This document shows positions 3,458-53,117 of a stretch of 64,000 bases of DNA, piece after piece (within the stretch, counting starts at the first letter, position 1; every line of letters begins with the position of its first letter). Below the pieces are notes generated by a model. The model was not told the DNA's origin and did not search any database. It saw nothing but the letters and a program-made list of their open reading frames with translations. Made by a program: the position numbers and the translations under genes. Where the stretch lies: the sequence record NC_048731.1. One strand, written 5' to 3'. Source of the DNA: Escherichia phage fp01.

Positions 3458-3947
3458 TTTCAAATTGCCCGTATATGCTTTACGGGCGTTTGTATCAATT
3501 GAGCAAGAGGGTGATTATTCCGTAATTACAACAAGGTATAATAAATATGTGCTAGATAACAGGAAGTTGCCTGGCACGTTTTCTCAACGTAGGCTTATTC
3601 TATTTGAGAAACGGAAAGAATTACCCTACAAGCTCTACCCTATTAGAGGTAGAATATCAATGTTGTCTCAATTAGTTGGGTCAAAGCGTAGCCAATTTAT
3701 AGATTCTGATGGAAATCTTATTAACTGGAAGAAAACTACATTCTATGATGTTGTCACCTCTAAAGTTTTGCATTCAGCTAGAATTTATAATGGAAAATAC
3801 CAATGCTATGTAGCTAAAGTTCCATACCCATTTGTATTATCCTATGTTCCAGCTTATATAAGCTATATTCTGGTAAATAATAGCCCTGTTATTTACCAAG
3901 TCCATCAAGAGGAGCCTGAAATTCCTAGACTTAGAATAAAATTATGA
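3450..3947 (+). CDS. hypothetical protein (start uncertain; possible internal ATG near 3660)
   Basis: Open frame between polymerase and helicase genes; no recognisable motif. Confidence 0.3.
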   Translation: MLDFKLPVYALRAFVSIEQEGDYSVITTRYNKYVLDNRKLPGTFSQRRLILFEKRKELPYKLYPIRGRISMLSQLVGSKRSQFIDSDGNLINWKKTTFYDVVTSKVLHSARIYNGKYQCYVAKVPYPFVLSYVPAYISYILVNNSPVIYQVHQEEPEIPRLRIKL

Positions 3948-7581: not shown

Positions 7582-9400
7582 GACACTAAAATTTAGTAAC
7601 GTTATGTCTTACGGTAAGGACATCGTAATTCATTTCGATAAGAATCCAGTTACTCAACTAATTGGTGGCAATGGGCTAGGGAAATCCACTATTGCTACTG
7701 TTATTGAAGAATTGTTTTATAACAAGAACTCACGGGGTATTAAGAAGGACGCCCTGTTCTCTTGGTCTACTCCGAAAAAAGAGTATGATATGCACGCTTA
7801 CTTCTCGAAAGATGAAGATGAGTATGAATTGCATAAAGTAGTTAAATCAACTGCTAAAGTAACTCTTATTAAGAATGGAGAAGATATTAGTGGCCACACG
7901 GCAACTCAAACATACAAGATGATTGAAGAGATTATGGGTGGTGACTTCCAAACATTCACCAAACTAATTTATCAATCAGTGGGTTCCAATCTAGACTTTC
8001 TAAAAGCAACAGATGCAACACGTAAGGCTTTTCTTGTCAACTTGTTCAATCAAGAACAGTATAAAGAAATGTCAGAAACTATTAAGGCTGACCGTAAAGA
8101 AATAGCAAATACCTTAAATAATTTGCAGGGCCAAATGGCTGTAATTACGAAGATCCTTAATGGAAAGAATAATCTGGGAACTTTGCAGGAACCTGTAGAA
8201 GTACCGGAGTTTGATGAAGAGCCATTAGCACAAGAACTTACTGAATCGAAAATTAAGGCGGCATTAGCCAAGTCTCAAGAGGCTAATATTACTAAATTGC
8301 GTAATTTGGACAAAGCTGTACAAGTTGCCGAACAATCTTTCGAACCTTTCAAAAATTTGCCCGCGCCTACTGACCAAAACGAAGAGATCTCAAGTGTTAC
8401 GCGTGACCTAACGATTGTGACCTCACGTGCGGGAGAAGTTAAGAAACGTTATCAGAAGTTCAAGCAAGAGGCTTCAAATACTGAATGTCCTACTTGTGGT
8501 ACTCATCTGGATACAACTGCTGCTCAAAAAGCAATGGATATGGCTAGAATAGAATATGACCCTCTGTTCAAAGAGAAGCAATCTCTTGAAGCTAAGCTAG
8601 AACAGTTGAAGAAAGAACAACTTGAGTACGTTGCGTATACTAGAGCAAAGGATGCTTTGGATAAAGCAGTGGCAGCTAGAGACGAGTTCAAAAATTCAAT
8701 GAGTGACGCCTCTTTTGAAGAACTCAATGTGCAAAACCTACAGGTGCAAATCCGACAACTAGAACAGGAAATAGCTGATGGCCGTTCTAAGGTTGCAATT
8801 GCCAAAGAGCATAATGCAAATGTCGAATTAGCCAATGCAAAATATAAAGCGAAACTAGAACAGATTGAGAAAGCTGAGGCAGAAATGTCTGAGATTACTT
8901 CCAAACTGGATGAAGTATCAGAAGCTGTTTCTGATCTAGATATTCTGATTGCTGCATTGAAAAATCTGGTAGGGTATAAACTAGAACATAGCGTGAAAGT
9001 ATTTGAAGAGCTTATCAATAAATACCTTTCCATTATGACTGGCGGTAAGTTCGCACTTGGATTTGAACTTGATGAAACAAAATTACAAGTAGTAATCTTC
9101 AATGATGGAAACCGTACTAGTATGGAGAATTGCTCTACTGGTCAGCAAAGTCGAATCAACCTAGCAACTCTGTTAGCTATTCGAATGCTACTAACATCTA
9201 TTAGTAAAGTTAATATTAATCTTCTATTCCTTGATGAAGTAATTAGCTTTATTGATACGAAAGGACTTGACACCCTTGTTGAATTATTAAATGAGGAAGA
9301 AAGTCTAAATTCTATCATTGTTTCTCATGGGCATACGCATCCATTGGCCCATAAGATTACTGTCAAAAAAGATGCAGAAGGATTTTCCTACTTAGAATAA
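7562..9400 (+). CDS. Rad50/SbcC-like ATPase (T5 D12-like)
   Basis: Walker A 'GGNGLGKST', long coiled coil with zinc-hook-like 'CPTCG', ABC signature 'STGQQSRINLA', Walker B 'LLFLDEV'. Likely start is ATG at 7562 (MSKITIK), not 7481. Confidence 0.75.
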   Translation: MSKITIKTLKFSNVMSYGKDIVIHFDKNPVTQLIGGNGLGKSTIATVIEELFYNKNSRGIKKDALFSWSTPKKEYDMHAYFSKDEDEYELHKVVKSTAKVTLIKNGEDISGHTATQTYKMIEEIMGGDFQTFTKLIYQSVGSNLDFLKATDATRKAFLVNLFNQEQYKEMSETIKADRKEIANTLNNLQGQMAVITKILNGKNNLGTLQEPVEVPEFDEEPLAQELTESKIKAALAKSQEANITKLRNLDKAVQVAEQSFEPFKNLPAPTDQNEEISSVTRDLTIVTSRAGEVKKRYQKFKQEASNTECPTCGTHLDTTAAQKAMDMARIEYDPLFKEKQSLEAKLEQLKKEQLEYVAYTRAKDALDKAVAARDEFKNSMSDASFEELNVQNLQVQIRQLEQEIADGRSKVAIAKEHNANVELANAKYKAKLEQIEKAEAEMSEITSKLDEVSEAVSDLDILIAALKNLVGYKLEHSVKVFEELINKYLSIMTGGKFALGFELDETKLQVVIFNDGNRTSMENCSTGQQSRINLATLLAIRMLLTSISKVNINLLFLDEVISFIDTKGLDTLVELLNEEESLNSIIVSHGHTHPLAHKITVKKDAEGFSYLE

Positions 9401-9403
9401 AAC

Positions 9404-9886
9404 ATGGCTGTAGATAGTAGAGAGAAAGGTAAACGTGGTGAATATCAGGTAAGAGATATTCTACGTGAGCGTACAGGTCTTGAGTGGGAACGTGTTCCTG
9501 GCTCTGGTGCTTTTGGCCAGAGCCACGGACTAAAAGGTGACATCTACCTTCCACCACAAAGCGGACACATTAGTAGATACTGCTTCGAAGTTAAGTGGTA
9601 TAAAGATGATAATATATCAAGTAATTTATTTAATGTTGGTGAATCCACTCTAGAGAAGTGGTGGCAGCAGTGCTCACGTGAAGGTGAGCAAATGAACTCC
9701 AAACCTGCATTAATATTCAAAAAAGACAGAGGACAGTGGTTAATAGCTTTGGATAGCTCAGACCCGATGGTTGACAACTTAATGAGTCGTACCCATATGG
9801 TGTTAAATAAGAAAGACATGGAAATCGTAATTGGTTTATTTGAGCCGTGGCTACATCATGCATCTGTTGAGGACTTAATTAAATAA
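9404..9886 (+). CDS. hypothetical protein, possible PD-(D/E)xK-type nuclease
   Basis: Candidate 'GDIYL...FEVKWYK' D...ExK arrangement; placed between SbcC-like and flap endonuclease genes. Weak. Confidence 0.4.
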   Translation: MAVDSREKGKRGEYQVRDILRERTGLEWERVPGSGAFGQSHGLKGDIYLPPQSGHISRYCFEVKWYKDDNISSNLFNVGESTLEKWWQQCSREGEQMNSKPALIFKKDRGQWLIALDSSDPMVDNLMSRTHMVLNKKDMEIVIGLFEPWLHHASVEDLIK

Positions 9887-10761
9887 TGAGTAAATCCTGG
9901 GGAAAATTTATTGAAGAAGAGGAAGCTGAAATGGCTTCCCGTCGTAACCTAATGATTGTCGATGGAACTAACTTAGGCTTTCGCTTCAAGCATAACAATA
10001 GTAAAAAACCATTTGCCTCAAGTTATGTTTCCACTATTCAGTCTCTTGCAAAATCTTATTCTGCTAGAACTACAATAGTTTTAGGAGATAAGGGGAAGTC
10101 TGCATTCCGCTTAGAGCATTTACCTGAGTATAAGGGTAATCGAGATGAGAAATACTCTCAGCGTACGGAAGAGGAGAAAGCGTTAGATGAGCAGTTCTTC
10201 GAGTATTTGAAAGATGCTTTCGAATTATGTGAAACTACGTTCCCAACTTTCACTATTCGTGGTGTAGAAGCAGACGACATGGCAGCTTATATTGTTAAGC
10301 TCATCGGGCATCTATATGATCATATTTGGCTAATTTCTACCGATGGTGACTGGGATACTTTATTAACTGATAAAGTATCTCGCTTCTCTTTCACAACACG
10401 TCGTGAATATCATCTTCGTGATATGTATGAGCATCATAATGTTGACGATGTAGAGCAGTTTATCTCCCTGAAAGCAATTATGGGTGATTTAGGGGATAAT
10501 ATCCGAGGTGTTGAAGGTATTGGGGCAAAGCGTGGGTATAATATTATTCGTGAATTTGGTAACGTTCTGGATATTATTGATCAGCTTCCACTGCCTGGAA
10601 AACAGAAATATATACAGAATTTAAATGCTTCGGAAGAATTGCTTTATCGAAACCTAATTCTGGTTGATTTACCTACCTACTGTGTGGATGCTATTGCTGC
10701 TGTAGGTCAAGATGTATTAGATAAATTTACAAAAGATATTTTGGAGATTGCAGAACAATGA
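9886..10761 (+). CDS. flap endonuclease / 5'-3' exonuclease (T5 D15-like, 291 aa)
   Basis: N-terminus 'MSKSWGKFIEEEEAEMASRRNLMIVDGTNLGFRF' and overall sequence match what I recall of T5 5'-exonuclease; conserved acidic clusters 'VDGTN', 'GVEADD', 'STDGDWD'. Confidence 0.85.
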   Translation: MSKSWGKFIEEEEAEMASRRNLMIVDGTNLGFRFKHNNSKKPFASSYVSTIQSLAKSYSARTTIVLGDKGKSAFRLEHLPEYKGNRDEKYSQRTEEEKALDEQFFEYLKDAFELCETTFPTFTIRGVEADDMAAYIVKLIGHLYDHIWLISTDGDWDTLLTDKVSRFSFTTRREYHLRDMYEHHNVDDVEQFISLKAIMGDLGDNIRGVEGIGAKRGYNIIREFGNVLDIIDQLPLPGKQKYIQNLNASEELLYRNLILVDLPTYCVDAIAAVGQDVLDKFTKDILEIAEQ

Positions 10762-11204
10762 TTAAAATTAAATTAACTCATCCAGATTGTATGCCTAAGA
10801 TTGGTTCCGAAGATGCTGCAGGTATGGATCTGCGAGCATTCTTTGGTACTAACCCTGCTGCAGATTTACGTGCTATTGCACCAGGCAAATCCCTAATGAT
10901 TGACACCGGTGTCGCGGTGGAAATTCCGCGAGGTTGGTTCGGTTTGGTAGTTCCTCGTAGCTCTTTAGGTAAGCGTCATTTGATGATTGCAAATACCGCG
11001 GGAGTGATTGACTCAGACTATCGTGGAACTATTAAGATGAACCTGTTCAACTACGGTTCTGAAATTCAAACTCTGGAAAATTTTGAAAGACTTTGTCAGC
11101 TGGTAGTAGTACCACACTACTCAACTCATAATTTTGAAATTGTTGACGAACTAGGGGAGACTGATCGTGGAGAGGGTGGCTTTGGAAGTTCGGGAAGTAA
11201 ATAA
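10758..11204 (+). CDS. dut: dUTP pyrophosphatase
   Basis: dUTPase motifs 'AGMDLRA', 'VPRSSLG', 'GVIDSDYRGT', 'RGEGGFGSSG'. Confidence 0.85.
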   Translation: MIKIKLTHPDCMPKIGSEDAAGMDLRAFFGTNPAADLRAIAPGKSLMIDTGVAVEIPRGWFGLVVPRSSLGKRHLMIANTAGVIDSDYRGTIKMNLFNYGSEIQTLENFERLCQLVVVPHYSTHNFEIVDELGETDRGEGGFGSSGSK

Positions 11205-11228
11205 TCTACATATCAAATAAATAATAAA

Positions 11229-11260
11229 CCCCAGAGGGATATCCCTCTGGGGTTTTCTTT
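11229..11260. terminator. bidirectional rho-independent terminator between converging modules
   Basis: Hairpin 'CCCCAGAGGG-ATAT-CCCTCTGGGG' flanked by A-run upstream and 'TTTTCTTTTATT' downstream. Confidence 0.65.
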
Positions 11261-13389
11261 TATTGAGGTACTATCTGTACCTTTAATTGCTTGAGTTCTT
11301 CTTCTAAGTCTTCAATCCTTTTAATAAGATCTTGAACAACATGCATAGTATCAAGAAGCATTGGAGTTGTATCAAGTTCTTTTTGTTCCTGTTCTGCCCC
11401 ATTGTTATCATAGAATTTTCTAGTTTTAACATAAAGCGGTTCTATAACTTCTGTTTCCTGAGCGATAACACCTCGTCTTATACGTTGAAGATTATCGTTA
11501 TTATATATGAATGTCACAAAGTTTAGATTTTTGATGTTTTCTAAAGCTTTTTCAACAGTTGTATTTTCTATAGAATGTTTAAGGCGCCTATCTGAAGTTG
11601 CATTCTTTTGTAAAGTGTATGTTTCTTCTGATCCTGGTTGCCATTTGTGGAAAAAAATATCGGAATTTAATGGTTGAATACCGACACGAACTCCATAAGC
11701 GTTATTAGCATCGCCAGCAATATGCCATACGGATTGTGCAAAAGATGTTCCGTTGTGATGAATCATCCCCCAGTGACACGAAGTCTTATAACCACCTTGA
11801 CTAGATTGGGCACCACTAAGAAGACTATTAAAAGCGTAATTTGCTCCAATAGCCTGGTCTTCCGCGCTAAATGTACCTTTAGTAAAACCTGTTTCACTCC
11901 AAGCCATCATAGTCCCATATCTTGCTCTATATCGATCGCTACTCAGCGTACCTGTGTCATCAAAGGCAAGGTCTTTTGTCACCCCTTTTGTCTTGTTGTA
12001 TACAGACAGAATCGCATAATAAAGGCCATCCATGTATGCATCGCATCGCAATCCTGCATCCGCTTCAACAACGGTGCCGATTTTGTATTGGGCCTTTACC
12101 TGTCCTGACAATGCCTTTACGCCAGAGCCTGGGCGGACAGCATCAGCATTCATTACACTCCAAGACGTATTCGCGGCAACAAAGCCACCAGAGGCACGAA
12201 TCACCCAAACGCCGACAAAGTTGCGCGGAACGATTTCTGCTGCTGAACGACCATAAACAGGACTGCAGCGAGAAGCGTCAAAGTTGGTTTGTATGTACCT
12301 TGAACCAGAGCCAACCGCAGCAGGAGCGTCCCCCGAAGTTATCGACTGAAAAGCACCGTTAGTTGCCACTTGGCTTGCTAAAGAAGCCAATGTCACCATT
12401 GTGTGCGGCGCTGCGTAAGTTATATTTGGAGCGCCTGATTCAGACACAACCCCGTTGGACGATGAATTCCCGCCGTCACCCCTGCCAAATAAGGCCTGTA
12501 TGGAACCAGTTTGAACACCGTTCCTGTCAGGCACTCGAAACGTTGTTGTTCCGTTACCCAAAGAATATTTACCACGCTTTGATGCGTCAGCAAGCCATTC
12601 CGCATCTGAAATCGGCGTAAGCATTTGCGCATATGCCCAAAGCTCAGGCCAGTCAGCCCTGTTAAGAAGCTGCCCATCAGAAACCACCTCATACGGTTGA
12701 ATATACGCACGGCTATCTCGAAGATGGAAATCACCGACACCGTAGTTCATCACGCCATTCATTGTGGGTCCTACTGTGCCAGTATTAATTTTGTTCTCCA
12801 CCCAACGCTTAGTTACAGCATCATAATCATTAACGGGGTCTCCCGCAAGGGGGGTAGATCCAATAGGACGAACATTTAACCACGCAGCTGCGCGATCTGC
12901 TAAATCTGATAAATTATTTTCAGTCAATAGGCTTTCGTCTTTTGTTGGCACATTATAACTTTGTCTAAAAGCTTCTTTTGATACTACTCCAGTACCCCCT
13001 TGTTCTATAGAAAGTGCAGTGGTTAAACCTGTTAAAGATTTAATAGTTGAGTTGGCACCATCCATGTCTATACTAGCAAATCTTGACCATGCAGTCCATG
13101 AACTGTAAAAAGATCTACTATATATCTCATTACTATTATAAGGTAAGTAAATTTGAGTACAAGAAGTTGCTAAATTGCTTGCATTATTTTTTAAAACTAG
13201 TAATGTACCTGCAGCCGCAACAGGATAGTTAAGAGAAGTAGGAGAGTTAGCATTTTCAGATTGCCAATACTTTCCATACACACTCCCATCAAGTGTATTT
13301 AAATTTGTTCCTGTAGTAATTAAACCATATACAGGTAAAGCGGCTACATCAGTAGCCTTTAAGTTAATTTTATCAATTCTAAGAGCCAT
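11260..13389 (-). CDS. L-shaped tail fibre distal protein with C-terminal intramolecular chaperone (auto-cleaving) domain
   Basis: C-terminal ~110 aa ('KHSIENTTVEKALENIKNLNFVTF...EDLEEELKQLKVQ') resembles the S74-type chaperone domain found at the end of T5 pb1 and other phage fibres; body is Gly/Ser/Thr-rich. Confidence 0.65.
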   Translation of the reverse strand: MALRIDKINLKATDVAALPVYGLITTGTNLNTLDGSVYGKYWQSENANSPTSLNYPVAAAGTLLVLKNNASNLATSCTQIYLPYNSNEIYSRSFYSSWTAWSRFASIDMDGANSTIKSLTGLTTALSIEQGGTGVVSKEAFRQSYNVPTKDESLLTENNLSDLADRAAAWLNVRPIGSTPLAGDPVNDYDAVTKRWVENKINTGTVGPTMNGVMNYGVGDFHLRDSRAYIQPYEVVSDGQLLNRADWPELWAYAQMLTPISDAEWLADASKRGKYSLGNGTTTFRVPDRNGVQTGSIQALFGRGDGGNSSSNGVVSESGAPNITYAAPHTMVTLASLASQVATNGAFQSITSGDAPAAVGSGSRYIQTNFDASRCSPVYGRSAAEIVPRNFVGVWVIRASGGFVAANTSWSVMNADAVRPGSGVKALSGQVKAQYKIGTVVEADAGLRCDAYMDGLYYAILSVYNKTKGVTKDLAFDDTGTLSSDRYRARYGTMMAWSETGFTKGTFSAEDQAIGANYAFNSLLSGAQSSQGGYKTSCHWGMIHHNGTSFAQSVWHIAGDANNAYGVRVGIQPLNSDIFFHKWQPGSEETYTLQKNATSDRRLKHSIENTTVEKALENIKNLNFVTFIYNNDNLQRIRRGVIAQETEVIEPLYVKTRKFYDNNGAEQEQKELDTTPMLLDTMHVVQDLIKRIEDLEEELKQLKVQIVPQ

Positions 13390-39322: not shown

Positions 39323-39436
39323 TTTGACTTTTGCCAAATTTCATAAGATTACACATGGAGGTGTGCCCAGTGGGTTGGGGGAGAATACTTAGTCTGCTAA
39401 CCGCCACCCCCGTTACTATTACCTTGCTAACTGTTT

Positions 39437-39471
39437 CATCCTGTAACCATTTTAATTACAGGATGAAACTA
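39437..39471. terminator. strong hairpin (13-bp arms) downstream of dmp-like gene
   Basis: 'TTTCATCCTGTAA-CCATTTTAA-TTACAGGATGAAA' perfect inverted repeat. Confidence 0.45.
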
Positions 39472-39486
39472 TGTCAACTTTAATTA

Positions 39487-40221
39487 TTACGCAACTTTTA
39501 ATTTCTCAATATATTGTTGCGGGCTGCAACTATATTCTGCGCGTTCTTCCTCGGTCATACTTTCCCAACATAATTTCAAACGATCGGCTAGGAACTGATA
39601 ATCATTATCATCCTCGAGGGATTCATCAATAAAGGTTCCGCCTATCAATGCCACGCCGATTGATAGAATATCATTAACGGCTTGCGCATCTAGCGTTTTA
39701 AATCCATATGACGCAGCCGCTGATAATACACCTTTATGATCATCAATCATTGTAAAATCAGCGTTCGGATATAGCTGTTTAAATAATTCAAAGTAATAAC
39801 TTTTGTATACTGCGTCCTTGCTGTGGTATATCTCGCTAACCTTATCAGCCTCAAAATATTTATGCAGTGTATCGCGGGAAAATACACGGATATTACTATC
39901 ACCACGCCCGCGCAATCCTTGTTTGCGCAAATAATAATAATCCGACTTGCTCATCAGCCGAGCGGTGCAAATAATGTTTAAAGTATTTGAGTCATTCATA
40001 CATTGGCGCATATATTCCACCAAAGGTAATAAGGTGTCTTGCATTATTAAATCATGTTTACACGCTTCATTTTTATACTTATTTAAATTTAAATTCCCGT
40101 CGCTATCAAAGCAAGGCGCTACACGATGGAAAGAATTAATGATAGTGCCGTCCAGATCCCAAATCATGACGCGGGAAATATGCGGGAAATTACGGGAAAT
40201 ATTCATAATAGCTTTATTCAT
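39487..40221 (-). CDS. dmp: HAD-superfamily 5'-deoxyribonucleotidase (T5 Dmp-like)
   Basis: HAD motif I 'IWDLDGTI'; 244 aa; sits downstream of the A1-like gene in the GC-richer island. Confidence 0.6.
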   Translation of the reverse strand: MNKAIMNISRNFPHISRVMIWDLDGTIINSFHRVAPCFDSDGNLNLNKYKNEACKHDLIMQDTLLPLVEYMRQCMNDSNTLNIICTARLMSKSDYYYLRKQGLRGRGDSNIRVFSRDTLHKYFEADKVSEIYHSKDAVYKSYYFELFKQLYPNADFTMIDDHKGVLSAAASYGFKTLDAQAVNDILSIGVALIGGTFIDESLEDDNDYQFLADRLKLCWESMTEEERAEYSCSPQQYIEKLKVA

Positions 40222-40300
40222 TTGTTACGTTCTCCATTAAAGGGATGTAGTTTATCCAGCACTGCCCGCTATTTATAAGCGGGCAATAATAAATCAACTA

Positions 40301-40693
40301 TCAAAGACCATAAGCCAAAGCATCGGCGATAAAACTAATATCTTCGCCGGATATATGGGAACGAATACCCGCGCAGATATACACCTTTGCGCTTGATAGC
40401 TGATCATCAAAGCAAGCCGGACAAGGCGCGACAACTGCAAACGCAAGGCCAGCTTTCACGGCGTCAATGATAATCGTTTCTTGTTTCACCGTATCAACAT
40501 AAACGCCTGCGGCCTTGATGTAACTACTTGCGCGGCCTTGCGTATAGGCGAAAGTCGTGATCTGTAGCGCCTCATTAAATTCGATTAAATCATCAACAAC
40601 GTGACCGGCCTCAACGTGATACCGCTCACCATTAGAATAAACCAGAACGATTGAGGATTGAGCGCGATCGAATGGAATATTTTGCTTTTTCAT
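40301..40693 (-). CDS. hypothetical protein with HxE...PCxxC motif
   Basis: 'YHVEAGH' and 'APCPACF'; start 'MKKQNIPF' with leader 'TTAAATTAATTGGAGTTT'. Confidence 0.5.
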   Translation of the reverse strand: MKKQNIPFDRAQSSIVLVYSNGERYHVEAGHVVDDLIEFNEALQITTFAYTQGRASSYIKAAGVYVDTVKQETIIIDAVKAGLAFAVVAPCPACFDDQLSSAKVYICAGIRSHISGEDISFIADALAYGL

Positions 40694-40759
40694 ATTTATA
40701 AACTCCAATTAATTTAATAAGGGGCATAAGCTGGAAGTATTTCCAGCTTATAAATTTAA

Positions 40760-42424
40760 TTATGCGAAAAATTTGCCGTTTTTAAAGTCAATCAAAGTGC
40801 GTTGCCCGTTGGCGTATGTAATTAAATGCGTTTGCGTCCAGCTTGACGCGCCAACGTTGTAACCCATATCCAGACTACCAGCTACGCCAGCGGTATAAAC
40901 GCCGCCATAAATGCTAGCGGTGTGAGTGTGTCCGGTGTTTAACTTGCCCAATTTCTTAAACTGCTTAGGATTGCCACGGCTGCCGTTTATGCCGTTATGA
41001 CCGTGTACACCACACTCAATGCCTGCAATTTTGAATGATTGATCAGTCGTTAGGAAAATCGCGTTAAACTCGCAACCTGCGACGCTACGCAGCGCATAAT
41101 CTAGCACGTTGAAAGTATCGTCATGATTACCGATTGCCGCGTAAATTGCAGCATTAAGGCGGTGATATAGTTCCGCATTGGCTGGGTCGTCTTTAATGTT
41201 AGCATTACGATCATCAAGCCAACGAGATAGCGCCAAATCGTGATTCGATTCAACAATGATCGTTTGACTAAAATCACGCTCCATCGATTCCAGCACGCGC
41301 CCGGTATCGATAAGATCATCAATAACCTTATCCCGTCCGGCTGCATACTGTTTCGCTAGAAATACACCGGAAGCGCGGTTATGATGATTGCGCGATGTAA
41401 AATCATGCACGTCATGGATAAACTGATATTTAGGCTTGAGAATATCAAGCAAACTATTGTCGCCAGCCCATGACGCTGCGGCGCACTCCTCATCTAATTT
41501 TTCGGCGTGAATGTCACCATACTGTAAGCCTAAAACATGCCCCGATGTTTCATAGCATCCGGCGGGAGTAGCGCAAACATTCAGATCATAAAACACCCCG
41601 CTTTCATCCATTGTTTCAAGCTGGCGAACAAAAAATTCACCGTCCTCATCGAACTCGACAATCAGCGCACCAAAGTTATGAAGTGCTTCCGCTTTCTGTC
41701 CTGCTTTCTGCTGAATGTAGTTTTTGAGTGTTGCCGTTCCGGTTGAATACATGCGGCGCACCACTTCACCTTTTAAAGCTGGGACGCTTTCGGCGGTGAT
41801 TTTAGCGTGACCAATTGCCAGACCCTCGATATTTAAAGCCGTTGCAGTTTCTGCAAATCCAGAAAGCGGATAATCTGCGGTTGGCAAAACATTAATTTCA
41901 GCCATGAAAGCAAAACGGCGGTTATTTAAAAACACGTTTTTGCTGCAAATATACTTATCAAAAGCGGAATCATATTTGATTCCGTCAGCACCTTCCCCAT
42001 TTTGGAATCCGTTTTTATTATAAATATACTTAGAAACAAGCAAATCAGCGCCGATAAATTTGGCATATTGTTCAAGCGAGGACAAAAAGTTTTTATGCGG
42101 GAAAGTATTATTCTGAATCGATGTAATAATAAAGCGTTTGCCTTGTTTTACTTCCCACTGTTCCACGGTACTAGAAACAATTCCAGCCGCTTCGGGGCGC
42201 TCATCGTTTTTAATGGCTTTTACCGCTTTCGCCGCTTTCGGTTTAGCTGGTTTATTTGCTTCCAGCCAGTCGCAGATAGCGGTTGAATGTTTTGCAGTAT
42301 CGTAAACCGCTTTTGATATATCGTCGCAGACCTCCAATTTAGTAGCGCGCAGACGTTTACCATAGAAATTAAAGTCAGCGGCTAGTTTCAGGATAGCGGT
42401 TTGTTTTTCTGCGGAAAAAATCAT
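40760..42424 (-). CDS. A1: pre-early A1-like protein with metallophosphatase (Mre11-like) motifs
   Basis: ~554 aa from 'MIFSAEK'; 'GDIHAE', 'ESNHD', 'GHNGINGSRG', 'TGHTHTA' phosphoesterase motifs; size and position match T5 A1 as recalled. Confidence 0.65.
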   Translation of the reverse strand: MIFSAEKQTAILKLAADFNFYGKRLRATKLEVCDDISKAVYDTAKHSTAICDWLEANKPAKPKAAKAVKAIKNDERPEAAGIVSSTVEQWEVKQGKRFIITSIQNNTFPHKNFLSSLEQYAKFIGADLLVSKYIYNKNGFQNGEGADGIKYDSAFDKYICSKNVFLNNRRFAFMAEINVLPTADYPLSGFAETATALNIEGLAIGHAKITAESVPALKGEVVRRMYSTGTATLKNYIQQKAGQKAEALHNFGALIVEFDEDGEFFVRQLETMDESGVFYDLNVCATPAGCYETSGHVLGLQYGDIHAEKLDEECAAASWAGDNSLLDILKPKYQFIHDVHDFTSRNHHNRASGVFLAKQYAAGRDKVIDDLIDTGRVLESMERDFSQTIIVESNHDLALSRWLDDRNANIKDDPANAELYHRLNAAIYAAIGNHDDTFNVLDYALRSVAGCEFNAIFLTTDQSFKIAGIECGVHGHNGINGSRGNPKQFKKLGKLNTGHTHTASIYGGVYTAGVAGSLDMGYNVGASSWTQTHLITYANGQRTLIDFKNGKFFA

Positions 42425-42518
42425 AGTAATAAACTCCATTAAAGGGATAAAAAACGTTTGTTATTGGCAATATTGCCAGATATAACGCCTTGAATAATAG
42501 GCGTTATAATTTGCAACA

Positions 42519-42716
42519 TTAATTTAAAGGCATAAGGCTAGAACTAACACCACAAACAACGGCGGCAATAAAACAAATCAGACCTAAACGCTTCGCTAAC
42601 TTAGATTTGCGTTTAAAATAATACGAATCTAAGTCATTTTGAAAATATGCGAACAATAACGAGGCCGCCATAATAAATAGTCCTAGAATCAGCGATTCAG
42701 TAGGGTAAAAGATCAT
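42519..42716 (-). CDS. small two-TM membrane protein (65 aa)
   Basis: 'MIFYPTESLILGLFIMAASLLFAYF...LICFIAAVVCGV'; leader 'CCCTTTAACTGGAG'. Confidence 0.4.
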   Translation of the reverse strand: MIFYPTESLILGLFIMAASLLFAYFQNDLDSYYFKRKSKLAKRLGLICFIAAVVCGVSSSLMPLN

Positions 42717-42745
42717 TTTAATAACTCCAGTTAAAGGGAAATTAT

Positions 42746-42765
42746 AGTGGGGAATAATCCCCACT
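42746..42765. promoter_or_regulatory. perfect inverted repeat between A2-like and small membrane genes
   Basis: 'AGTGGGGA-ATAA-TCCCCACT'. Confidence 0.35.
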
Positions 42766-42773
42766 AGTTAAAT

Positions 42774-43181
42774 TTATTCACCTGCGGCCTGTTTTACTTC
42801 ATCGGCAACGCCTAACAACTGCGCCACGGCGTCCAGCGTTTCCAGTTTCGCGCTTTCAAGGCTTGCCAGATCATCGGCGTCTTTGATAATGCCGGAATCA
42901 ATAGCGTGTTTTGCAATTACTCGCACATAATGAGCCTTGCGGATTGAACTGCCGCCGCCAACTTTGCGCGGCTTATCGCTTTTTTGATAGGCTTTCGCGC
43001 TGGTCAATTTTGAGCGAACGGATACGGGAGAAGTCGCGCCCACTGCCTTTGCAATCTCTTTCAGGCCGTCGCTATTTGCAAATTCTAAACCGTTTTCGTT
43101 GATTAACTGCTGATACAGGGTAACAGCTTTTTGGGTGTTGTCTTCATTCCAAGTGAATTTTGCGGTTTTTGCGTTAGTCAT
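42774..43181 (-). CDS. hypothetical pre-early protein (A2-sized, possibly DNA-binding)
   Basis: 135 aa, Lys/Ala-rich; upstream of the A1-like gene in the same operon; leader 'TTAAATTAATTGGAGTTT'. Identity with T5 A2 is a guess from order and size. Confidence 0.3.
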   Translation of the reverse strand: MTNAKTAKFTWNEDNTQKAVTLYQQLINENGLEFANSDGLKEIAKAVGATSPVSVRSKLTSAKAYQKSDKPRKVGGGSSIRKAHYVRVIAKHAIDSGIIKDADDLASLESAKLETLDAVAQLLGVADEVKQAAGE

Positions 43182-43279
43182 GGTAAAAACTCCAATTAAT
43201 TTAATTTAAGGGATTAGATTAACTAATGTTAATCGTTATAACCCTCCTTATTCTAGGAGGGTATAAAGTTAACACTAAT

Positions 43280-43531
43280 TTATAATACAGCTTCCCATTT
43301 TTCGTTGCGTTGAACAACCTTTACAACATCGCCTGATTTAACGCGAACGTTATAAACGGTTTTGCCGTTGTTACTGCGTTCTGTTTCAGCGTATACCGCG
43401 TCGATTGTATCGAACGGCATAAGCGCCGCGCCTTTAATACGTTCGGCCTTTCCGGTTAATTCATCCGTTTTAGTAACGAAAGGAATAAAAACGGATTGAC
43501 CAATTTTAGGCGTGGTAATAACGTTTTGCAT
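43280..43531 (-). CDS. hypothetical protein (83 aa)
   Basis: ORF with 'GGAG' RBS. Confidence 0.45.
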   Translation of the reverse strand: MQNVITTPKIGQSVFIPFVTKTDELTGKAERIKGAALMPFDTIDAVYAETERSNNGKTVYNVRVKSGDVVKVVQRNEKWEAVL

Positions 43532-43762
43532 AATATAGACTCCAGTTTATTCAGTGGATTGTTCCGCATTACCTGCTAGAAAATAACAGGTAATAAGAAA
43601 AAATCCGCTCGCCATTATAAAATCAAATTAAAGAACTCCACGCGGGCCGCTATATCCCAGTTAGGGGGCGAGACACATTATGGTAAGTGCCGACCGTCAA
43701 ATTGTATCAAGTTATCGCTCTTTTCGAACTGGGTATATCTTAAAAGCCCATCGGCTAGGTTG

Positions 43763-43963
43763 TCAAACTATTTTTTGCAGTTTTTTATGATTTTCCTTCA
43801 GGTCAATCATAATATTACGCCAGATCATTTCTAAACCTTGCTGGCGCCCTTTCTTGTACTGCGTGAAGCGGTATTTTACCGATCTTTGCGCTACTGTCAA
43901 TAATTTTTTAGTTTCGCTATCCAGTGCCTTGCTAGGTTTACCAGTGATCAATAGAGTTTGCAT
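43763..43963 (-). CDS. hypothetical basic protein (66 aa)
   Basis: ORF; coupled to an upstream 52-aa ORF by TAATG overlap. Confidence 0.35.
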   Translation of the reverse strand: MQTLLITGKPSKALDSETKKLLTVAQRSVKYRFTQYKKGRQQGLEMIWRNIMIDLKENHKKLQKIV

Positions 43964-45152: not shown

Positions 45153-45717
45153 TGTTATAGTTTCCTTATGTTATTAATTTAATCTCTATTATATTATATC
45201 AAAACAATTAGCAGACTAGCTAATGAGTTTTTCAGGTTTAATTAGCAGACTCATAATCACTCTAAAAACCTATTAGCCAACTAACTATATTTTATTATAT
45301 AATAACTGTATAAATTAGTTAGTGAGAACCACTATCATTTAAGTTACCCACAGCCTTATACATTTTGTAAAATAATTTGACACAATAGGCGGCGATATGA
45401 GGGCTTTTACACAGACTTATCCACAGGTTATTCCACTGTATAAATATACAGGGTAAAAAGGTAGTGTTAACAACTGCAATCAATTTTAAGCGGCCTAAAA
45501 CGCTTTCTAACGAGCTAAACGCTGCGGGGTAGTATTAAAGTAAAGCCTTCACCCGTCGGCCTGGTGGCTTCGCCGTGTCTTGCTCTTTACTACACCGCTG
45601 CGCGGTTAGCATAAAACTAGGTGTTAGGCAAGGAAAATAAAAAAGTAAAATAATCTTTGCCTATGCTAGAAAATTACCCTTATCATTCACTCACCGATTA
45701 ACGAGGGAGGCCAACAA

Positions 45718-48725: not shown

Positions 48726-48880
48726 AAAAGTTTTTAATAGCTGGCATGTTTCCTTTGTTGCCTTATGTAATTTGCTGGGCTTTATATGCTCATGGTGCTA
48801 GTGTTCCCGGTGTGGCTGCATTTGGTGTATCAGCGGGCTTTCTAGCCGGACTACTAGCAAGCGTATATTTACGCAAGTAA
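48722..48880 (+). CDS. small membrane protein (52 aa)
   Basis: 'MKKFLIAGMFPLLPYVICWALYAHGASVPGVAAFGVSAGFLAGLLASVYLRK'; ATGA overlap with previous gene. Confidence 0.4.
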   Translation: MKKFLIAGMFPLLPYVICWALYAHGASVPGVAAFGVSAGFLAGLLASVYLRK

Positions 48881-48899
48881 TTAACAACGGAGCGTTATT

Positions 48900-49094
48900 A
48901 TGAGCAATAAAATTATTGTAACCAAAACCAGCACAACGGTTGATGTTTTTTACGTGCCCGATACGCCGGAAAACCGACAAGCGGTCGAGCGTGGGGAATA
49001 TGATAAAGTGATTTATGATCACGATGGTTATTATCAGTATTTGGTGGATTCATATGGGGAGGAGGAAAAGATCACGCACCGACTACCGGACTAA
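48900..49094 (+). CDS. hypothetical acidic protein (64 aa)
   Basis: Last ORF before the repeat landscape. Confidence 0.45.
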   Translation: MSNKIIVTKTSTTVDVFYVPDTPENRQAVERGEYDKVIYDHDGYYQYLVDSYGEEEKITHRLPD

Positions 49095-49133
49095 TAATCA
49101 CGGGGCGCAACTATCAGGAAGTGCCCCCAATTC

Positions 49134-49158
49134 TCAAATGAGAATGATTCTCATTTGA
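49134..49158. repeat. perfect 25-nt palindrome
   Basis: 'TCAAATGAGAAT-G-ATTCTCATTTGA'; motif 'AAATGAGAATGATTCT' recurs at ~49650 and ~49700. Confidence 0.85.
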
Positions 49159-49360
49159 CCGCGCCCGCGATGGTTAGCCTGCTAATGGTTAGGGTGTTAC
49201 GTGTCGCCTTGTGTGATCGTTAGCGAGCTAACTAATTTTCAAGCCTCCTCCAATTTTGCCCTTGTTTTAGTATCCCCACCAAAATTAAACGCGTTAGAAT
49301 GCGTTTGAGGGCGTTTTAGCGGTATATTAGAATTATTCACTGCGTAGGAATACTGTATAT

Positions 49361-49460
49361 TTATCCAGTAGGATAAGCTGTGGATAAGTCTGTTGATAAC
49401 GCTTCAAAACGGCTAGGATTTTGTCAAGTCAAATCGTGCTGTTGATAAGTCTGGGGATAA
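49361..49460. promoter_or_regulatory. cluster of DnaA-box-like 9-mers
   Basis: 'TGTGGATAA' (perfect complement of TTATCCACA) plus 'TGTTGATAA' x2, 'TGGGGATAA', 'TTATCCAGT' within ~100 bp. Confidence 0.6.
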
Positions 49461-49485
49461 CTTAAATAATAGTGTTTCTCACTTC

Positions 49486-49740
49486 CGTTCTTAAATGCGA
49501 ATCATTATCATTTGCATTCCACTTCCTGAATAAGAATCATTCCACTATCTAAACGATAATCATTCCACTTCCTGAATAATAATCATTCCACTATCTAAAT
49601 AAGAATCATTCCACTATCTAAACGATAATCATTCCACTTTTTAAATGAGATTGATTCTCATTCCACTTTCTAAATGCGAATTATTATCATTCGCATTCCG
49701 CTTTTTAAATGAGAATGATTCTTATTATCATTCGTATTTA
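49486..49740. repeat. tandem iteron-like ~23-bp repeats
   Basis: About 8 head-to-tail units of 'CATTCCACT(A/T)(T/C)CT(A/G)AA(T/C)(A/G)A(T/G)AAT' with variants. Confidence 0.8.
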
Positions 49741-49762
49741 GCGCAGAGCAATTGCTCTGCGC
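49741..49762. repeat. perfect 22-nt palindrome followed by T-run
   Basis: 'GCGCAGAGCA-ATT-GCTCTGCGC' then 'TTTTGTG'; could act as a terminator or protein site. Confidence 0.8.
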
Positions 49763-49765
49763 TTT

Positions 49766-50369
49766 TGTGCAAAACCGACATTGCTCCACGGGTGTTACGT
49801 GCGGGCGTATGTGCAAATCCGACAGGATTTTTGGTAGTGTGCAAATCCGACCCGAAAAATTTTTATAGTGTGCGAATCCGACAATGAATTTTTCCAAAAA
49901 CTCCAGCAATCCGATGCTGCGCATCAATCCTGTGGAATTAACTAGAATATGTGCAAATCCGACATGAGTTTATTTGTGCGAATCCGACAAGATTTTTGTG
50001 ACTTCGATTGGAGGGTGTGTGATTGTGTGGGTTTGGGGAGAAGTTGAGAGAGCGAGGGAAAATTAGGGGAGAAGCTAGAGAGGCGCATGTTTGGTGCGGG
50101 GGCACCCGATTTGCGGGGATTTTGGGGAAGAGTTGAGAAGATTTGGGTTAATTTGAGATTAGTGGAGATAAAGTAAAATTTTATTAGCTAAATGGGGCAA
50201 AATAGCTTGACAAGTGAAAATTCTTGTGGCTCTAAAAACTCAGGCAATCATGGGCCTTCGGCCCGAAATAATGCTGCCATTTTCAAGAGATTATGTGTCC
50301 ATGAAAACTTAGGCAATTGTGCAAATCCGACCATAAATTTCTAGAAACACAATGTGCAAATCCGACAGT
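49766..50369 (+). repeat. eight dispersed direct copies of a 14-nt motif
   Basis: 'GTGC(A/G)AA(A/T)CCGAC(A/C)' at ~49767, 49811, 49840, 49871, 49950, 49977, 50320, 50353, all on the same strand. Confidence 0.8.
50000..50200 (+). repeat. purine-rich G-tract region with 3 copies of 'GGGGAGAAG(T/C)TGAGAG'-like unit
   Basis: Strong G+A skew on plus strand; G-runs 'GGG','GGGG','GGGGG' spaced by short linkers. Confidence 0.7.
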
Positions 50370-50914
50370 AAAATCCAGAAATGTGTTTTCAAAAAATGTT
50401 GTCTAGAAATAACCGCCCTCCCCATAACCGCCCTGTATTAAACCGCCTAGTATATGTTCCTAGAAACTTAGGAGAACCGCCCACTAGAAGTGTGATATCT
50501 CGTGAGTATTTCGTGAGAACTCTGGAGTTTCTAGGAAAGTGTTGTGCCATCCTAGCAGATGAGCGGCAACAGGTGTATCATCTTGAATGTAAATTATGTG
50601 GTCAAAAGTTTTACTTTTATTTTAAATATAAGATCCCCCAGGGTTCTCATATAGAGCTTTGCCCCCGCCAGAAGGTCTCGTGATGTTTCTAGCAATTTAT
50701 ATTAAATTACTTATTAACTTGTCCTGTCGCTCCGTATCCTCCGCTACAAGTTAGTAATTTTAAATTACTGAACCACCACACCTTCTGTGTGGCAACTCTA
50801 AATGGTTAATTCTATTAACTCATAGAGTTATGATAACATACATTTAGCTATCTGTCAACGAGAGTTTGTATTTGAGTCTCGGTACAGGTATTGTGCACCG
50901 AGACTTGCAGGATC

Positions 50915-51799
50915 TTACAGTAACTCTTGGTATGCTTTTTGATACGCCTCAGTGTCCGTAGGTGTACCTTTTGCAATGGCTATTAATTCATCTGTAATCT
51001 GAATATTCGTATTATAACGTGAGTGGAACTCGTCAGGAATTTCTAGATACCTATTGATGAATGCTGCAGCAAGCGGTGAAGCTACACCCATTTCTAGAAC
51101 CCATCCAACATGGTTTTCAAATTTCAGATAAGGAGAATCAGATGGGATTGGTGGGGTTACATCAATTTTCTCTGGTTCTTTTTCTGGAAGCAACGGATTA
51201 TTATATAATGCTTCATCTGGAAGCACAGATTTACGCTCTTTAAATATATAAGTTTCTAGATCAGATGCTTTAGATCCTGAGTATACAGCAAAGATGCTAG
51301 CTTTACCTTGTGATGCTCTAACTGGTAGATAACTAGTAGGATAGCTTCTTAATGCATCATGGAATGGACTTCCTGAATATTTGTACGTATCCCCATAGAG
51401 ATCGTCAATATTCATTCGTTCATCTTCAAAAATGTGAAATGACTTAAATGGTGGAATGGTGAAGTATTCCATCTGTAATCCATAAACTAAGAAACGATGT
51501 GCATATGCACTGATTTTTAAGACTGTGAATGCTTTTTCACCTTCTTTATGGGCATTGCCCTTTGAAGTAACTGGGTAACGTTTACAAAACATCTCTACTA
51601 GACGTTTCTCATTAAGACTAAGGGTGGAGTACAGTCGTCCACTTAACCCTATAAGTGCATCGAACATAAATGCTAGTTTATCTTTTTCTTCTTGGGTTAG
51701 TTCAGGAAACGGAAGTACTTTAGCATTAGGAACACTATTATTCTCCTTTGCCTTTACTTTGCCAGCATTTTGTCTTAGTTTATCTTTAAAGTTATACAT
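50915..51799 (-). CDS. hypothetical early protein (294 aa)
   Basis: Long ORF, first gene of the minus-strand early block after the repeat region. Confidence 0.55.
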   Translation of the reverse strand: MYNFKDKLRQNAGKVKAKENNSVPNAKVLPFPELTQEEKDKLAFMFDALIGLSGRLYSTLSLNEKRLVEMFCKRYPVTSKGNAHKEGEKAFTVLKISAYAHRFLVYGLQMEYFTIPPFKSFHIFEDERMNIDDLYGDTYKYSGSPFHDALRSYPTSYLPVRASQGKASIFAVYSGSKASDLETYIFKERKSVLPDEALYNNPLLPEKEPEKIDVTPPIPSDSPYLKFENHVGWVLEMGVASPLAAAFINRYLEIPDEFHSRYNTNIQITDELIAIAKGTPTDTEAYQKAYQELL

Positions 51800-51877
51800 T
51801 ATTTATCTCTCATTTTTAAGGTCTGGATGACCTTCTTTTTATTTTAGAGCCTCCGTAGAGGCTCATGTATTAGAGGA

Positions 51878-52492
51878 TTAGCTACCTCTCTTATCCTCGT
51901 CGATAACAGCTCCCAACGCCTCCATAATAGCATCTTCTAAGCTTCCATGCTTACTAGGATTATTAAAATGAATAGTACAAACAGAACTCCTAGAAACTCC
52001 AGCATCCGCAGGTGCTACGCTTCGCATATCAGATTCAAAAGCTTCTTGAGTATGTTTCAGCTGTACAGAAGGGCCGTAGTCTTCACCAAACTTATATGAC
52101 TGCGTACTACTTACCACACCCCCACAAGGAACATTGTGCATATCCGACATTAATCTTTTATCGGAGTTATTCAGCATTGAGATTGTCCCTGACTGCCACG
52201 GATCTCTAATAGTCACTGGAGTACTGGGGCGATTCACCTCGGTCTTCACAAGTTTGTACCCTGCATCGATTAATGCGTTAATTAGATTATCAGCCGGGAT
52301 GCGAGCCTTGCCAAAAATCTTACGAGCATCTTCGAGCTTATCCTCAAGATCTTTACATGCTCTAAGGTCATTGTGTGCAAATGTTAGCTTCATAGATTTG
52401 AATTGTACAGTAGCAGTTAAATCTTTAAAGCTATAATCCCATGTGTTCAGTTCATGATCTGGTACTACTTGAATAGGTTGTTGTGTAAACAT
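51878..52492 (-). CDS. hypothetical early protein (204 aa)
   Basis: ORF. Confidence 0.5.
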   Translation of the reverse strand: MFTQQPIQVVPDHELNTWDYSFKDLTATVQFKSMKLTFAHNDLRACKDLEDKLEDARKIFGKARIPADNLINALIDAGYKLVKTEVNRPSTPVTIRDPWQSGTISMLNNSDKRLMSDMHNVPCGGVVSSTQSYKFGEDYGPSVQLKHTQEAFESDMRSVAPADAGVSRSSVCTIHFNNPSKHGSLEDAIMEALGAVIDEDKRGS

Positions 52493-52677
52493 TATTTATT
52501 CTCCAGTTTGTCTAATAGCTTATGAGCTGCTAGATTATATTGTTCAAGTTCACGATTAAGGATTTGGTTTTCACACTTTAACTCTAGGTTCTCTTTATTA
52601 AGAAGATTGCTAATAAATAGAAGTGCTAGTATAATTAGCAAGGAACCTACGAGCATTAAAAGAAAAAGAGTTTCCAT
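52492..52677 (-). CDS. small membrane/coiled-coil protein (61 aa)
   Basis: N-terminal TM 'LFLLMLVGSLLIILALLFI' then coiled-coil-like tail. Confidence 0.4.
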   Translation of the reverse strand: METLFLLMLVGSLLIILALLFISNLLNKENLELKCENQILNRELEQYNLAAHKLLDKLENK

Positions 52678-53117
52678 TATTTTATCTCCATTCTTAACTT
52701 TGAAAACTTATTATACCAAACTATATGATTATCGTCAATTACAAATTTATGATAACATGCTGGTACGGTATAAGTTCCATAATCCGTGACACGCTGCACA
52801 ACCTTGTGTGCACACAGTCGACAACCATGCCCTTCTAAATGAGATCTAGCAGTTTGCCAGTAATAACCATCATGGTCCGGGCAATAGATCTCAACTTGCT
52901 GTTGCATTGTCTTATAATTTACACGCTCATACCCAAAGAAAGCTCCATGAGCTGCAACAGCTTTCTTGATAAATATAAGGTTTAATGCTTCTTGTTGAAA
53001 GTCGGGATGTAGCTGCTTAATCTTAGTTCTATTAATAGATCCATCCGATTTGATAAACCTATTTATTGGGAAGTTGTTAGCTTCCTCGATTAATAATTCA
53101 TTTACTTTTTCTCTCAT
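52677..53117 (-). CDS. hypothetical Cys/His-rich protein (147 aa from 'MREKVNE')
   Basis: 'CPDHDGYYW...HLEGHGCRLCAH' possible metal-binding motif; TAAtATG junction with upstream gene. Confidence 0.45.
   Translation of the reverse strand: MREKVNELLIEEANNFPINRFIKSDGSINRTKIKQLHPDFQQEALNLIFIKKAVAAHGAFFGYERVNYKTMQQQVEIYCPDHDGYYWQTARSHLEGHGCRLCAHKVVQRVTDYGTYTVPACYHKFVIDDNHIVWYNKFSKLRMEIK

Follow-up and report, generated by a model that had tools for sequence, protein, structure and literature searches.

The window analyzed here is a stretch of 64,000 nucleotides of Escherichia phage fp01 (NC_048731.1). Its longest non-coding stretch is a gap of 1,820 bp (positions 49095–50914) between the stop codons of two convergent genes, the last rightward pre-early gene and a leftward homologue of T5.018 (Table 1). 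An earlier note, made from the letters alone, had described 49095–50400 as a region without a convincing open reading frame (ORF) that stacks several unrelated repeat families and resembles the injection stop signal (iss) of phage T5. The start of this interval holds, whereas its right edge at 50400 is arbitrary, the non-coding block running on to 50914. If only ORFs of 90 amino acids or more are counted, the longest ORF-free part of the window is 48726–50380.

Judged by its sequence, the source genome is that of a T5-like phage (Demerecviridae, Tequintavirus). Across 24 kb, it most resembles Shigella phage SSP1 (94.1%) and Salmonella phage L6jm, and for the region 49095–50400 itself the best match is Salmonella phage GSP044 (93.4%). 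This interval is matched by 449 phage records, in 230 of which the match extends over 80% of it or more. A BLAST comparison with the initial 13 kb of T5 (RefSeq NC_005859) reveals a colinear arrangement, in which 39378–40723 corresponds to T5 15–1363, 40753–43960 to T5 1699–4912, and 49259–52691 to T5 9317–12709, the last at 84% identity.

The homologues of dmp, A1, and A2 (39487–43181, minus strand) are abutted by late tail genes at the left, and early genes lie at the right. Because the tail genes run straight into dmp-A1-A2, with the early genes to the right, the assembly contains one collapsed copy of the terminal repeat, reaching from ∼39364 to ∼50232. The left end was placed by the alignment of T5 nucleotide 15 with position 39378, which puts T5 nucleotide 1 at ∼39364, and the right end by the end of the T5 left terminal repeat (LTR) at 10219, which corresponds to 50232; the junction sequence is the same in phiR2-01. 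As the boundary at ∼50232 falls inside the interval 49095–50400, the latter is not purely first-step-transfer DNA; its last 170 bp and everything on to 50914 are unique DNA.

The T5 record (RefSeq NC_005859) annotates a terminator after the last pre-early gene, the iss as a misc_feature at 9140–10149, a “major DNA single-chain interruption” at 9748/9749 on the minus strand, and the LTR end at 10219. The iss maps to 49101–50162 of the window and the nick, whose position in T5 was itself annotated by its match to the consensus NPu-pGCGCN, to 49762/49763 on the minus strand. The alignment with T5 that the earlier note had proposed thus brings the iss, the nick, and the LTR end into 49101–50232. 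The same part of T5 was described by Davison (2020, 10.1101/866236) as “Repeat Region 3,” which is conserved in 25 T5-like phages and consists of IRD′-spacer-IRC′ with DnaA boxes, DRE/DRC repeats, palindromes, and nine DRD repeats; its inverted partner, IRC-spacer-IRD, is “Repeat Region 2” (10.1101/866236). All elements of Repeat Region 3 are present in the window, in the same order as in T5. Because of this homology and synteny, which extend to the annotated iss, nick, and LTR end, the interval is almost certainly the orthologue of T5 Repeat Region 3 and the iss region, which supports the likeness to an injection stop signal seen in the earlier note. The region is already known and ordinary for a T5-like genome, and one more genome that carries it adds nothing by itself.

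The T5 iss region (Heusterspreute 1987; Wang 2005; bioRxiv 10.1101/866236; RefSeq NC_005859) and the region in the window share their placement after the last rightward pre-early gene and before the end of the terminal repeat, their element order (a module with four DnaA boxes, palindromes and tandem repeats, a GCGC nick palindrome, 14-mers, a G-rich tract, and the repeat end), and an inverted partner module ∼4 kb leftward. The left 165 bp of the window region (49095–49258) are not shared with T5 but are present in Kenya-K36 and partly in Vibrio phage X1, the 23-bp array has two units more than in T5 or K36, the 14-mer occurs eight instead of nine times, the LexA-like box reads CCAG instead of ACAG, and only one DnaA box of the region is a consensus box. 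From the literature, a pause of transfer at this region that A1 and A2 must end is known only for T5 and BF23.

Several unrelated repeat families had been claimed for the region, and the tandem array, the 14-mers, the palindromes, and the DnaA boxes are indeed present beyond chance. The placement between pre-early genes and early promoters is correct on the left side only. On the right, the gap is bordered by the 3′ end of the leftward T5.018 homologue, and no early promoter was found on the plus strand at this flank in a σ70 scan (11 sites versus 7.1 expected).

The six largest ORFs of the gap were compared with 10 relatives and rejected as genes, four being broken by stops, one representing a composition artefact, and one lacking a coding signature. 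In most of these relatives, stop codons break up the program-listed ORFs of 80, 85, 100, and 53 amino acids. The 55-amino acid ORF (49938–50105, minus strand) is free of stops in the relatives compared, probably as a compositional artefact, since stop codons would be rare in the C/T-rich complement of the G-rich tract. The 50-amino acid ORF (50192–50344) also stays open. However, its substitutions are spread over codon positions 1, 2, and 3 (10/7/12) without a third-position bias, T5 lacks its start codon, and a frameshift occurs in one relative, so that it is non-coding and conserved at the level of DNA, not protein. The lack of a convincing ORF is thereby borne out.

LexA-, DnaA-, and Fur-like sites in the left half

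The module IRD′-spacer-IRC′ (T5 nomenclature) aligns in inverted orientation not only with its partner in the window but also with that of T5: 49353–49483 matches T5 6228–6098, and 45321–45451 matches T5 9541–9411 (BLAST). It carries four DnaA-type boxes, all on the minus strand, of which one is a consensus box (49379) and three deviate by one mismatch (49391, 49440, and 49452). Their spacing of 12/49/12 is the same as in T5 (9437, 9449, 9498, and 9510). The pattern TTATCMMCA matches the window 8 times versus 2.95 expected, and the loose consensus TTWTNCACA is unenriched in the window as a whole (11 versus 8). What makes DnaA a candidate ligand is how the boxes are arranged and that this arrangement is conserved, rather than their number.

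A palindrome resembling the LexA (SOS) box sits 8 bp left of the first DnaA pair. With up to three mismatches allowed, it is the sole match in the 64 kb (0 expected). A box matching the consensus at 19/20 positions occurs at the equivalent place in T5, Kenya-K36, saus47N, chee130_1, phiR2-01 (two copies), and Sugarland, and likewise in Erwinia KEY, IrmaTschudi, 100268_sal2, and S131. Vibrio phage X1, Proteus phage 1, and Aeromonas AhSzq-1, whose A1 proteins share only 33–42% identity with that of the window phage, possess CTGT-N8-ACAG boxes. Each of the 14 Demerecviridae examined has a LexA-type box beside its DnaA boxes. Counted from the CTGT of the LexA-type box, the DnaA boxes stand at +26, +38, and +87 to +90 in the window and equally in Vibrio X1 and in Proteus phage 1; AhSzq-1 keeps this spacing in part, with +38. 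The CCAG variant seen in the window is found in 4 of 44 sites in IMG/VR contigs.

A comparable arrangement is known from the uvrB/DARS1 locus of Escherichia coli, where a LexA box and DnaA boxes co-occur and both are bound (PMC6015884, from which the LexA consensus and the uvrB box were also taken). As in the window, a strong LexA box is separated there by tens of base pairs from DnaA boxes that are themselves closely spaced, and the right arm of the uvrB operator AACTGTTTTTTTATCCAGTA, TTTATCCAGTA, is identical to that of the LexA-like box. However, only the motifs are alike; E. coli genomes gave no BLAST match, and a promoter context is not evident in the window, where the promoter scan found no σ70-type promoter overlapping the LexA-like box (49351–49370). 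An origin of the module from a plasmid or chromosome was rejected, as 49330–49740 has no BLAST match among PLSDB plasmids or 5,426 E. coli genomes. LexA and SOS are unmentioned in the Davison preprint (10.1101/866236), and a wider literature search, with a 2015 review outside its scope, found no LexA or Fur box for the T5 family. The resemblance to LexA and Fur sites was hence not found reported, an absence that is no proof of its being unpublished.

A third match to CTGTAT-N4-ATCCAG lies at 2042–2057 inside an 855-amino acid ORF (890–3457). It is probably a chance match because its flanks misfit the LexA consensus.

The palindromes of the left half belong largely to a 19-bp family, AATGAGAATGATTCTCATT, with 5 sites versus 0.04 matches expected. 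Its first member recurs in near-identical form in Vibrio phage X1, together with the GACCGCGCCCG that follows it. Several of these sites resemble Fur boxes. The Fur 7-1-7 motif TGATAATnATTATCA is matched at 13/15 positions by TGAGAATGATTCTCA (in 49134–49158) and TGCGAATCATTATCA (in 49494–49518), and 49139–49730 contains four sites at this level and six with up to three mismatches, compared with ∼10 of the latter expected across 64 kb. All sites of the window with up to two mismatches fall within the terminal repeat. The perfect box listed in Table 1 is identical in T5 (nucleotide 233) and Kenya-K36 (nucleotide 200). For the Fur 19-mer GATAATGATAATCATTATC, the best match is 16/19 (49711). Across 14 phages, Fur-like sites reach a density of 2.83 per kb in the left half versus 0.10 per kb in the flanks (28-fold), but the Fur consensus itself is degenerate and rich in A and T.

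Fur-like sites also occur near dmp in Proteus phage 1 and Aeromonas AhSzq-1. Outside the family, the unrelated Escherichia phage nepoznato (Phapecoctavirus, 151 kb) has three strong Fur-box-like palindromes, e.g. AAATGATAATCATTCTCATTT, at 2490–2600 in an 800-bp non-coding gap, in a stretch similar enough to the T5-type palindromes for a BLAST match.

The copy number of the 23-bp tandem array differs between relatives, and the resulting gaps in the alignment account for its low identity of 0.39. The array and the DnaA boxes, 55 bp apart, are found within 261 bp that have a GC content of 30%.

14-mers and the end of the terminal repeat

The right half contains eight exact copies of the 14-mer that corresponds to the T5 DRD repeat, and with up to one mismatch the window holds 11 matches versus 0.03 expected. 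The inferred repeat end is bracketed by them, with six copies on its left side and two on its right. This order of cluster, gap (∼270–360 bp), and cluster is kept in T5-like, Klebsiella, Erwinia, and Vibrio phages, is looser in Proteus phage 1, and is replaced by a single dense array in Aeromonas AhSzq-1; wherever the repeat end is annotated or mappable, the gap between the clusters contains it. The short repeat itself changes with the lineage: T5-like, Klebsiella, and Erwinia phages carry GTGCRAATCCGA, Vibrio X1 carries GAGTGCGGATTCTA, Proteus phage 1 carries GTGAGTAATAGA, and AhSzq-1 carries TAGACGGCTAGA.

Conservation was profiled as the mean identity to the window base over 20 distinct relatives. 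The LexA/DnaA module scores 0.90–0.95, the left six 14-mers 0.86–0.98 per copy, the right two 14-mers 0.99, and the repeat-end block (50192–50290) 0.95. The non-coding block made up of these elements (0.86–0.99) is better conserved than its flanks, and identity drops to 0.3–0.5 over 50486–50915.

The G-rich tract left of the repeat end had been described as consisting of G-rich purine repeats. Its G-richness is evident, whereas repetition is barely present (one 12-nucleotide pair and 1.9 copies of a 10-mer) and purines make up 65%. A G-quadruplex in this tract was rejected, since no such motif was found, with loops of up to 12 nucleotides, in the window, T5, or five other relatives.

The annotated right repeat ends vary among the records of relatives and lie at three different positions with respect to one conserved sequence (record positions 5695, 5672, 10219 in T5, and 6063). 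T5 and phiR2-01 end after GTGGCTC, and saus47N and chee130_1 end ∼210 bp earlier, at GTGTGATTG/TRTGGG (the slash marks the end). In Klebsiella phage Sugarland, the repeat end assigned by PhageTerm (5270/5271) is the homologue of the T5 7.9% nick, CTGCGC/TTATGTGCGAATCCGAC (window 49763). PhageTerm may have mistaken the nick for a terminus, which would then independently support conservation of the nick.

At the left repeat end, GTGGGTTGGGGGAGAA (39370–39385, 7 nucleotides inside the repeat) resembles GTGGGTTTGGGGAGAA (50027–50042) at the start of the G-rich tract in 15/16 positions (E = 0.05), and the latter site is where the saus47N-type records put the repeat end. A cut-site motif shared by both junctions was rejected, this one 16-nucleotide match being missing from the T5 left end.

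Copies of the 14-mer at greater distance comprise a one-mismatch copy at 52135 and two adjoining near-copies, TGTGCAAAACCTAC and GGTGCAAATCCGAC, at 8728–8756 in a 639-amino acid ORF (7481–9400, plus strand), far from the repeats.

Table 1. Coordinates of features in and around the gene gap and in the partner module
Feature	Sequence	Position	Strand	Remarks
Perfect Fur 7-1-7 box	TGATAATCATTATCA	39596–39610		In the 3′ part of dmp, ∼230 bp from inferred left repeat end
Partner module, T5 “Repeat Region 2” (IRC-spacer-IRD)		45321–45455		Inverted orientation
Partner-module DnaA boxes	TTTTACACA; TTATCCACA	45405; 45417		
Partner-module LexA-like box	CACTGTATAAATATACAGGG	45434–45453		16/20, CTGT-N8-ACAG
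64-amino acid gene		48900–49094	+	Left flank of gap, last rightward pre-early gene
Hairpin	GGGGCGC...GTGCCCC	49102–49127	+	Right after last pre-early stop; terminator-like, without T run
Perfect palindrome, 12+1+12	TCAAATGAGAAT-G-ATTCTCATTTGA	49134–49158		First of 19-bp family
Repeated motif	GGGTGTTACGTG...	49192–49215; 49790–49813	+	Core GTGTTACGTG also in Vibrio phage X1
IRD′-spacer-IRC′ module		49333–49483		Inverted copy of module 45321–45455
LexA (SOS)-like palindrome	TACTGTATATTTATCCAGTA	49351–49370		18/20 to TACTG(TA)5CAGTA; CTG-N10-CAG kept
DnaA pair 1	TTATCCACA; TTATCAACA	49379–49387; 49391–49399	−	3 bp apart; spacing as T5 9437/9449
DnaA pair 2	TTATCAACA; TTATCCCCA	49440–49448; 49452–49460	−	3 bp apart; 61 bp from pair 1
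Palindrome	AATGCGAATCATTATCATTTGCATT	49494–49518		19-bp palindrome family
23-bp tandem array	CATTCCACTATCTAAATAATAAT	49515–49646	+	5.7 copies, AT-rich
Three palindromes (within 49644–49730)		49644–49662; 49673–49697; 49708–49726		Fur-box-like; together a 41-nucleotide imperfect inverted repeat
Perfect 24-bp palindrome	AGCGCAGAGCAATTGCTCTGCGCT	49740–49763		Right end corresponds to T5 7.9% nick site
14-mer (T5 “DRD”), six copies	TGTGCRAAWCCGAC	49766, 49810, 49838, 49869, 49950, 49975 (to 49988)	+	Left of repeat end
G-rich, C-poor tract		49996–50165	+	G 43%, C 7%, purine 65%
Near-invariant block	Contains GCTTGACAAG	50192–50290		Most conserved 99 bp; inferred repeat end 50232/50233; hairpin GGGCCTTCGGCCC (50252–50264)
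14-mer, two copies	TGTGCRAAWCCGAC	50318, 50353 (to 50366)	+	Outside terminal repeat
Four AACCGCC repeats interleaved with CTAGAAA/TTTCTAG		50409–50485	+	Non-coding block, less conserved
Strong σ70-like promoter	TTGACA, 17 nucleotides, TATCAT	50858–50830	−	Upstream TG; 11/12 matches
294-amino acid gene, T5.018 homologue		50915–51799	−	3′ end is right flank of gap

Possible roles in DNA transfer and at the repeat end

In T5, ∼7.9% of the DNA enters the cell without protein synthesis and then stops, and the proteins A1 and A2 are needed for transfer to resume. FhuA alone allows complete ejection in vitro into FhuA proteoliposomes, which implies that a cellular component takes part in the stop, and membrane-bound DnaA was proposed as the host factor (Davison, 10.1101/866236). 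A minor first-step band near 5.8 kb, known from the literature, fits the second module. In the order of entry, the pre-early hairpins are followed by the 130-bp LexA/DnaA module, the AT-rich palindromes with the 23-bp array, the GCGC palindrome, six 14-mers, the G-rich tract, the repeat boundary, and two 14-mers. By the geometry inferred from T5, both the 7.9% length (∼9.6 kb) and the nick (9748) fall 200–340 bp right of the module.

The explanation we favor, by a modest degree, is that the T5 iss orthologue may be divided into a left half loaded by host proteins and a right half read by phage proteins. The stop function itself probably resides in the left half. As this half emerges into the cell, pre-existing host DNA-binding proteins would load onto it, with DnaA as the main candidate and probably LexA and Fur in addition. 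The resulting bulky or membrane-tethered nucleoprotein complex would halt transfer, with no newly made protein required, at a time when the nick and the 14-mer region have not yet left the envelope or tail, and A1 and A2 would then lift the block. The right half, with the 14-mers and the invariant block, would more likely be read by phage proteins, either for the restart or for formation of the repeat end. The genus-constant motifs would fit host proteins, and the lineage-drifting motifs would fit a phage-encoded reader.

That the loading of host proteins is what arrests transfer is a tentative proposal, to which we give somewhat less than even weight. The more specific picture of the iss as a landing pad for LexA, DnaA, and Fur on their candidate sites, with the 14-mers as phage sites for release or end formation, is still more doubtful. 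Phages of Escherichia, Salmonella, Yersinia, Klebsiella, Erwinia, and Vibrio retain the combination of LexA-, DnaA-, and Fur-like sites, and those of Proteus and Aeromonas retain part of it. If the landing-pad picture were true, the pause could depend on the state of the host (SOS, iron, and DnaA-ATP). The division into host-consensus motifs and lineage-variable repeats names specific proteins and short DNA segments; the corresponding host mutants (dnaA(ts), lexA(Def) sulA, and fur) are standard, and a toolkit for T5 genome engineering exists.

Several points weigh against this reading. Binding of DnaA, LexA, and Fur to the region, and an arrest of transfer by such binding, are predictions, and only one of the four DnaA boxes is a consensus box. 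Untethered cytoplasmic DNA binders would be expected to pull DNA in rather than to block it, and to our knowledge membrane association is known only for DnaA among the three proteins. The Fur resemblance is a lead, not a finding, because the match is weaker than that to LexA and because Proteus phage 1 lacks such sites in its left half and AhSzq-1 has them at a displaced position. A T5 mutant from which hegG through 017 as well as dmp are missing is viable and forms small plaques; as this deletion, by the T5 map, removes both the second module and the perfect Fur box, the two are dispensable for growth. Finally, the first-step end of T5 was mapped by shearing and coincides with the nick, so that the actual point of arrest may differ from it by hundreds of bases.

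The repeats might instead chiefly serve the terminal repeat, in the cutting or duplication of ends in concatemers or in recombination between left and right copies, with the pause set elsewhere or otherwise; we consider this improbable for the region as a whole, but it is the most serious competitor. It is strongest for the right half, where the inferred end at 50232 lies inside the most conserved 99 bp of the block and the flanking 14-mers keep their layout in most lineages despite their change in sequence. Phage T7 offers an analogy in its short-repeat arrays SRL and SRR, direct repeats that likewise flank the boundary of a terminal repeat, although their sequence is unrelated and the repeat measures 160 bp in T7 compared with ∼10.9 kb here. 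However, a role at the repeat end explains neither the Fur-like palindromes nor the LexA/DnaA module with its inverted copy, which lies 4 kb further inside the repeat. Moreover, the left junction lacks 14-mers and shares with the right side only the weak 16-nucleotide match that is absent in T5, and the annotated ends do not agree on one position.

An iteron-type replication origin read by a phage initiator, as in the plasmids RK2, P1, and F, is an unlikely role for the region. Four DnaA boxes 55 bp from a 5.7-copy array with a period typical of iterons (23 bp), the 261 bp at 30% GC, and a G-rich tract thereafter recall RK2 oriV, P1 oriR, and F ori2, which combine DnaA boxes, ∼22-bp tandem repeats, and AT-rich followed by G-rich DNA; the earlier note, too, had named tandem iterons among the repeats. 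In contrast to these, the region has no similarity to plasmid records in PLSDB, its array varies freely in copy number among close relatives, and no initiator gene is evident beside the array, though no search for one was made. In addition, the T5 origins were mapped near the genome middle by electron microscopy, and the T5 replication genes are unexpressed in the first step (both as summarized by Davison, 10.1101/866236).

A boundary of transcription, at which terminators and host operators insulate the convergent pre-early and early units and LexA, DnaA, and Fur sites tune the pre-early promoters, has an equally low probability in our judgment. The converging flanking genes, the hairpins after the last pre-early gene at the place where T5 has its annotated terminator, the position of the second module between divergent pre-early promoters in T5, and the joint regulation of E. 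coli uvrB by LexA and DnaA (PMC6015884) are all consistent with it. But 1.8 kb with more than 30 repeat copies goes far beyond the needs of a terminator, the LexA-like box lies downstream of the operon and not over a promoter, and the terminator scan gave 3 sites versus 1.9 in shuffled sequence.

The least probable explanation, to which we attach very little weight, is a pause caused by the DNA itself, i.e. by the nick at the GCGC palindrome, by cruciforms, or by a G-rich structure jamming the tail or channel. The T5 7.9% nick at 49762/49763 does match the classical 7.9% first-step length, and both perfect palindromes of 24–25 bp and a tract with 43% G (49996–50165) are available. However, no G-quadruplex motif occurs in the window or in T5. 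T5 mutants without nicks keep two-step transfer. Ejection into FhuA proteoliposomes is complete in vitro (Davison's summary), from which it follows that DNA alone does not block.

Other features of the gap

An Rfam scan with E values up to 1 returned only two chance-level matches (27 bits versus a gathering threshold of 82, and 24 versus 52). Right of the repeat end, CTAG is enriched (8 sites per 550 bp), which was dismissed as not notable because other 500-bp bins of the window equal it. The hairpin that follows the last pre-early stop codon is common to the window and Kenya-K36 and is not found in T5, which has a different terminator. The σ70-like promoter near the right edge of the gap, the one strong promoter-like site there, is situated just downstream of the T5.018 homologue and faces left into the gap, with no conserved ORF after it. 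The segment around this promoter (50858–50830) is almost mismatch-free with respect to T5 and is replaced in Kenya-K36.

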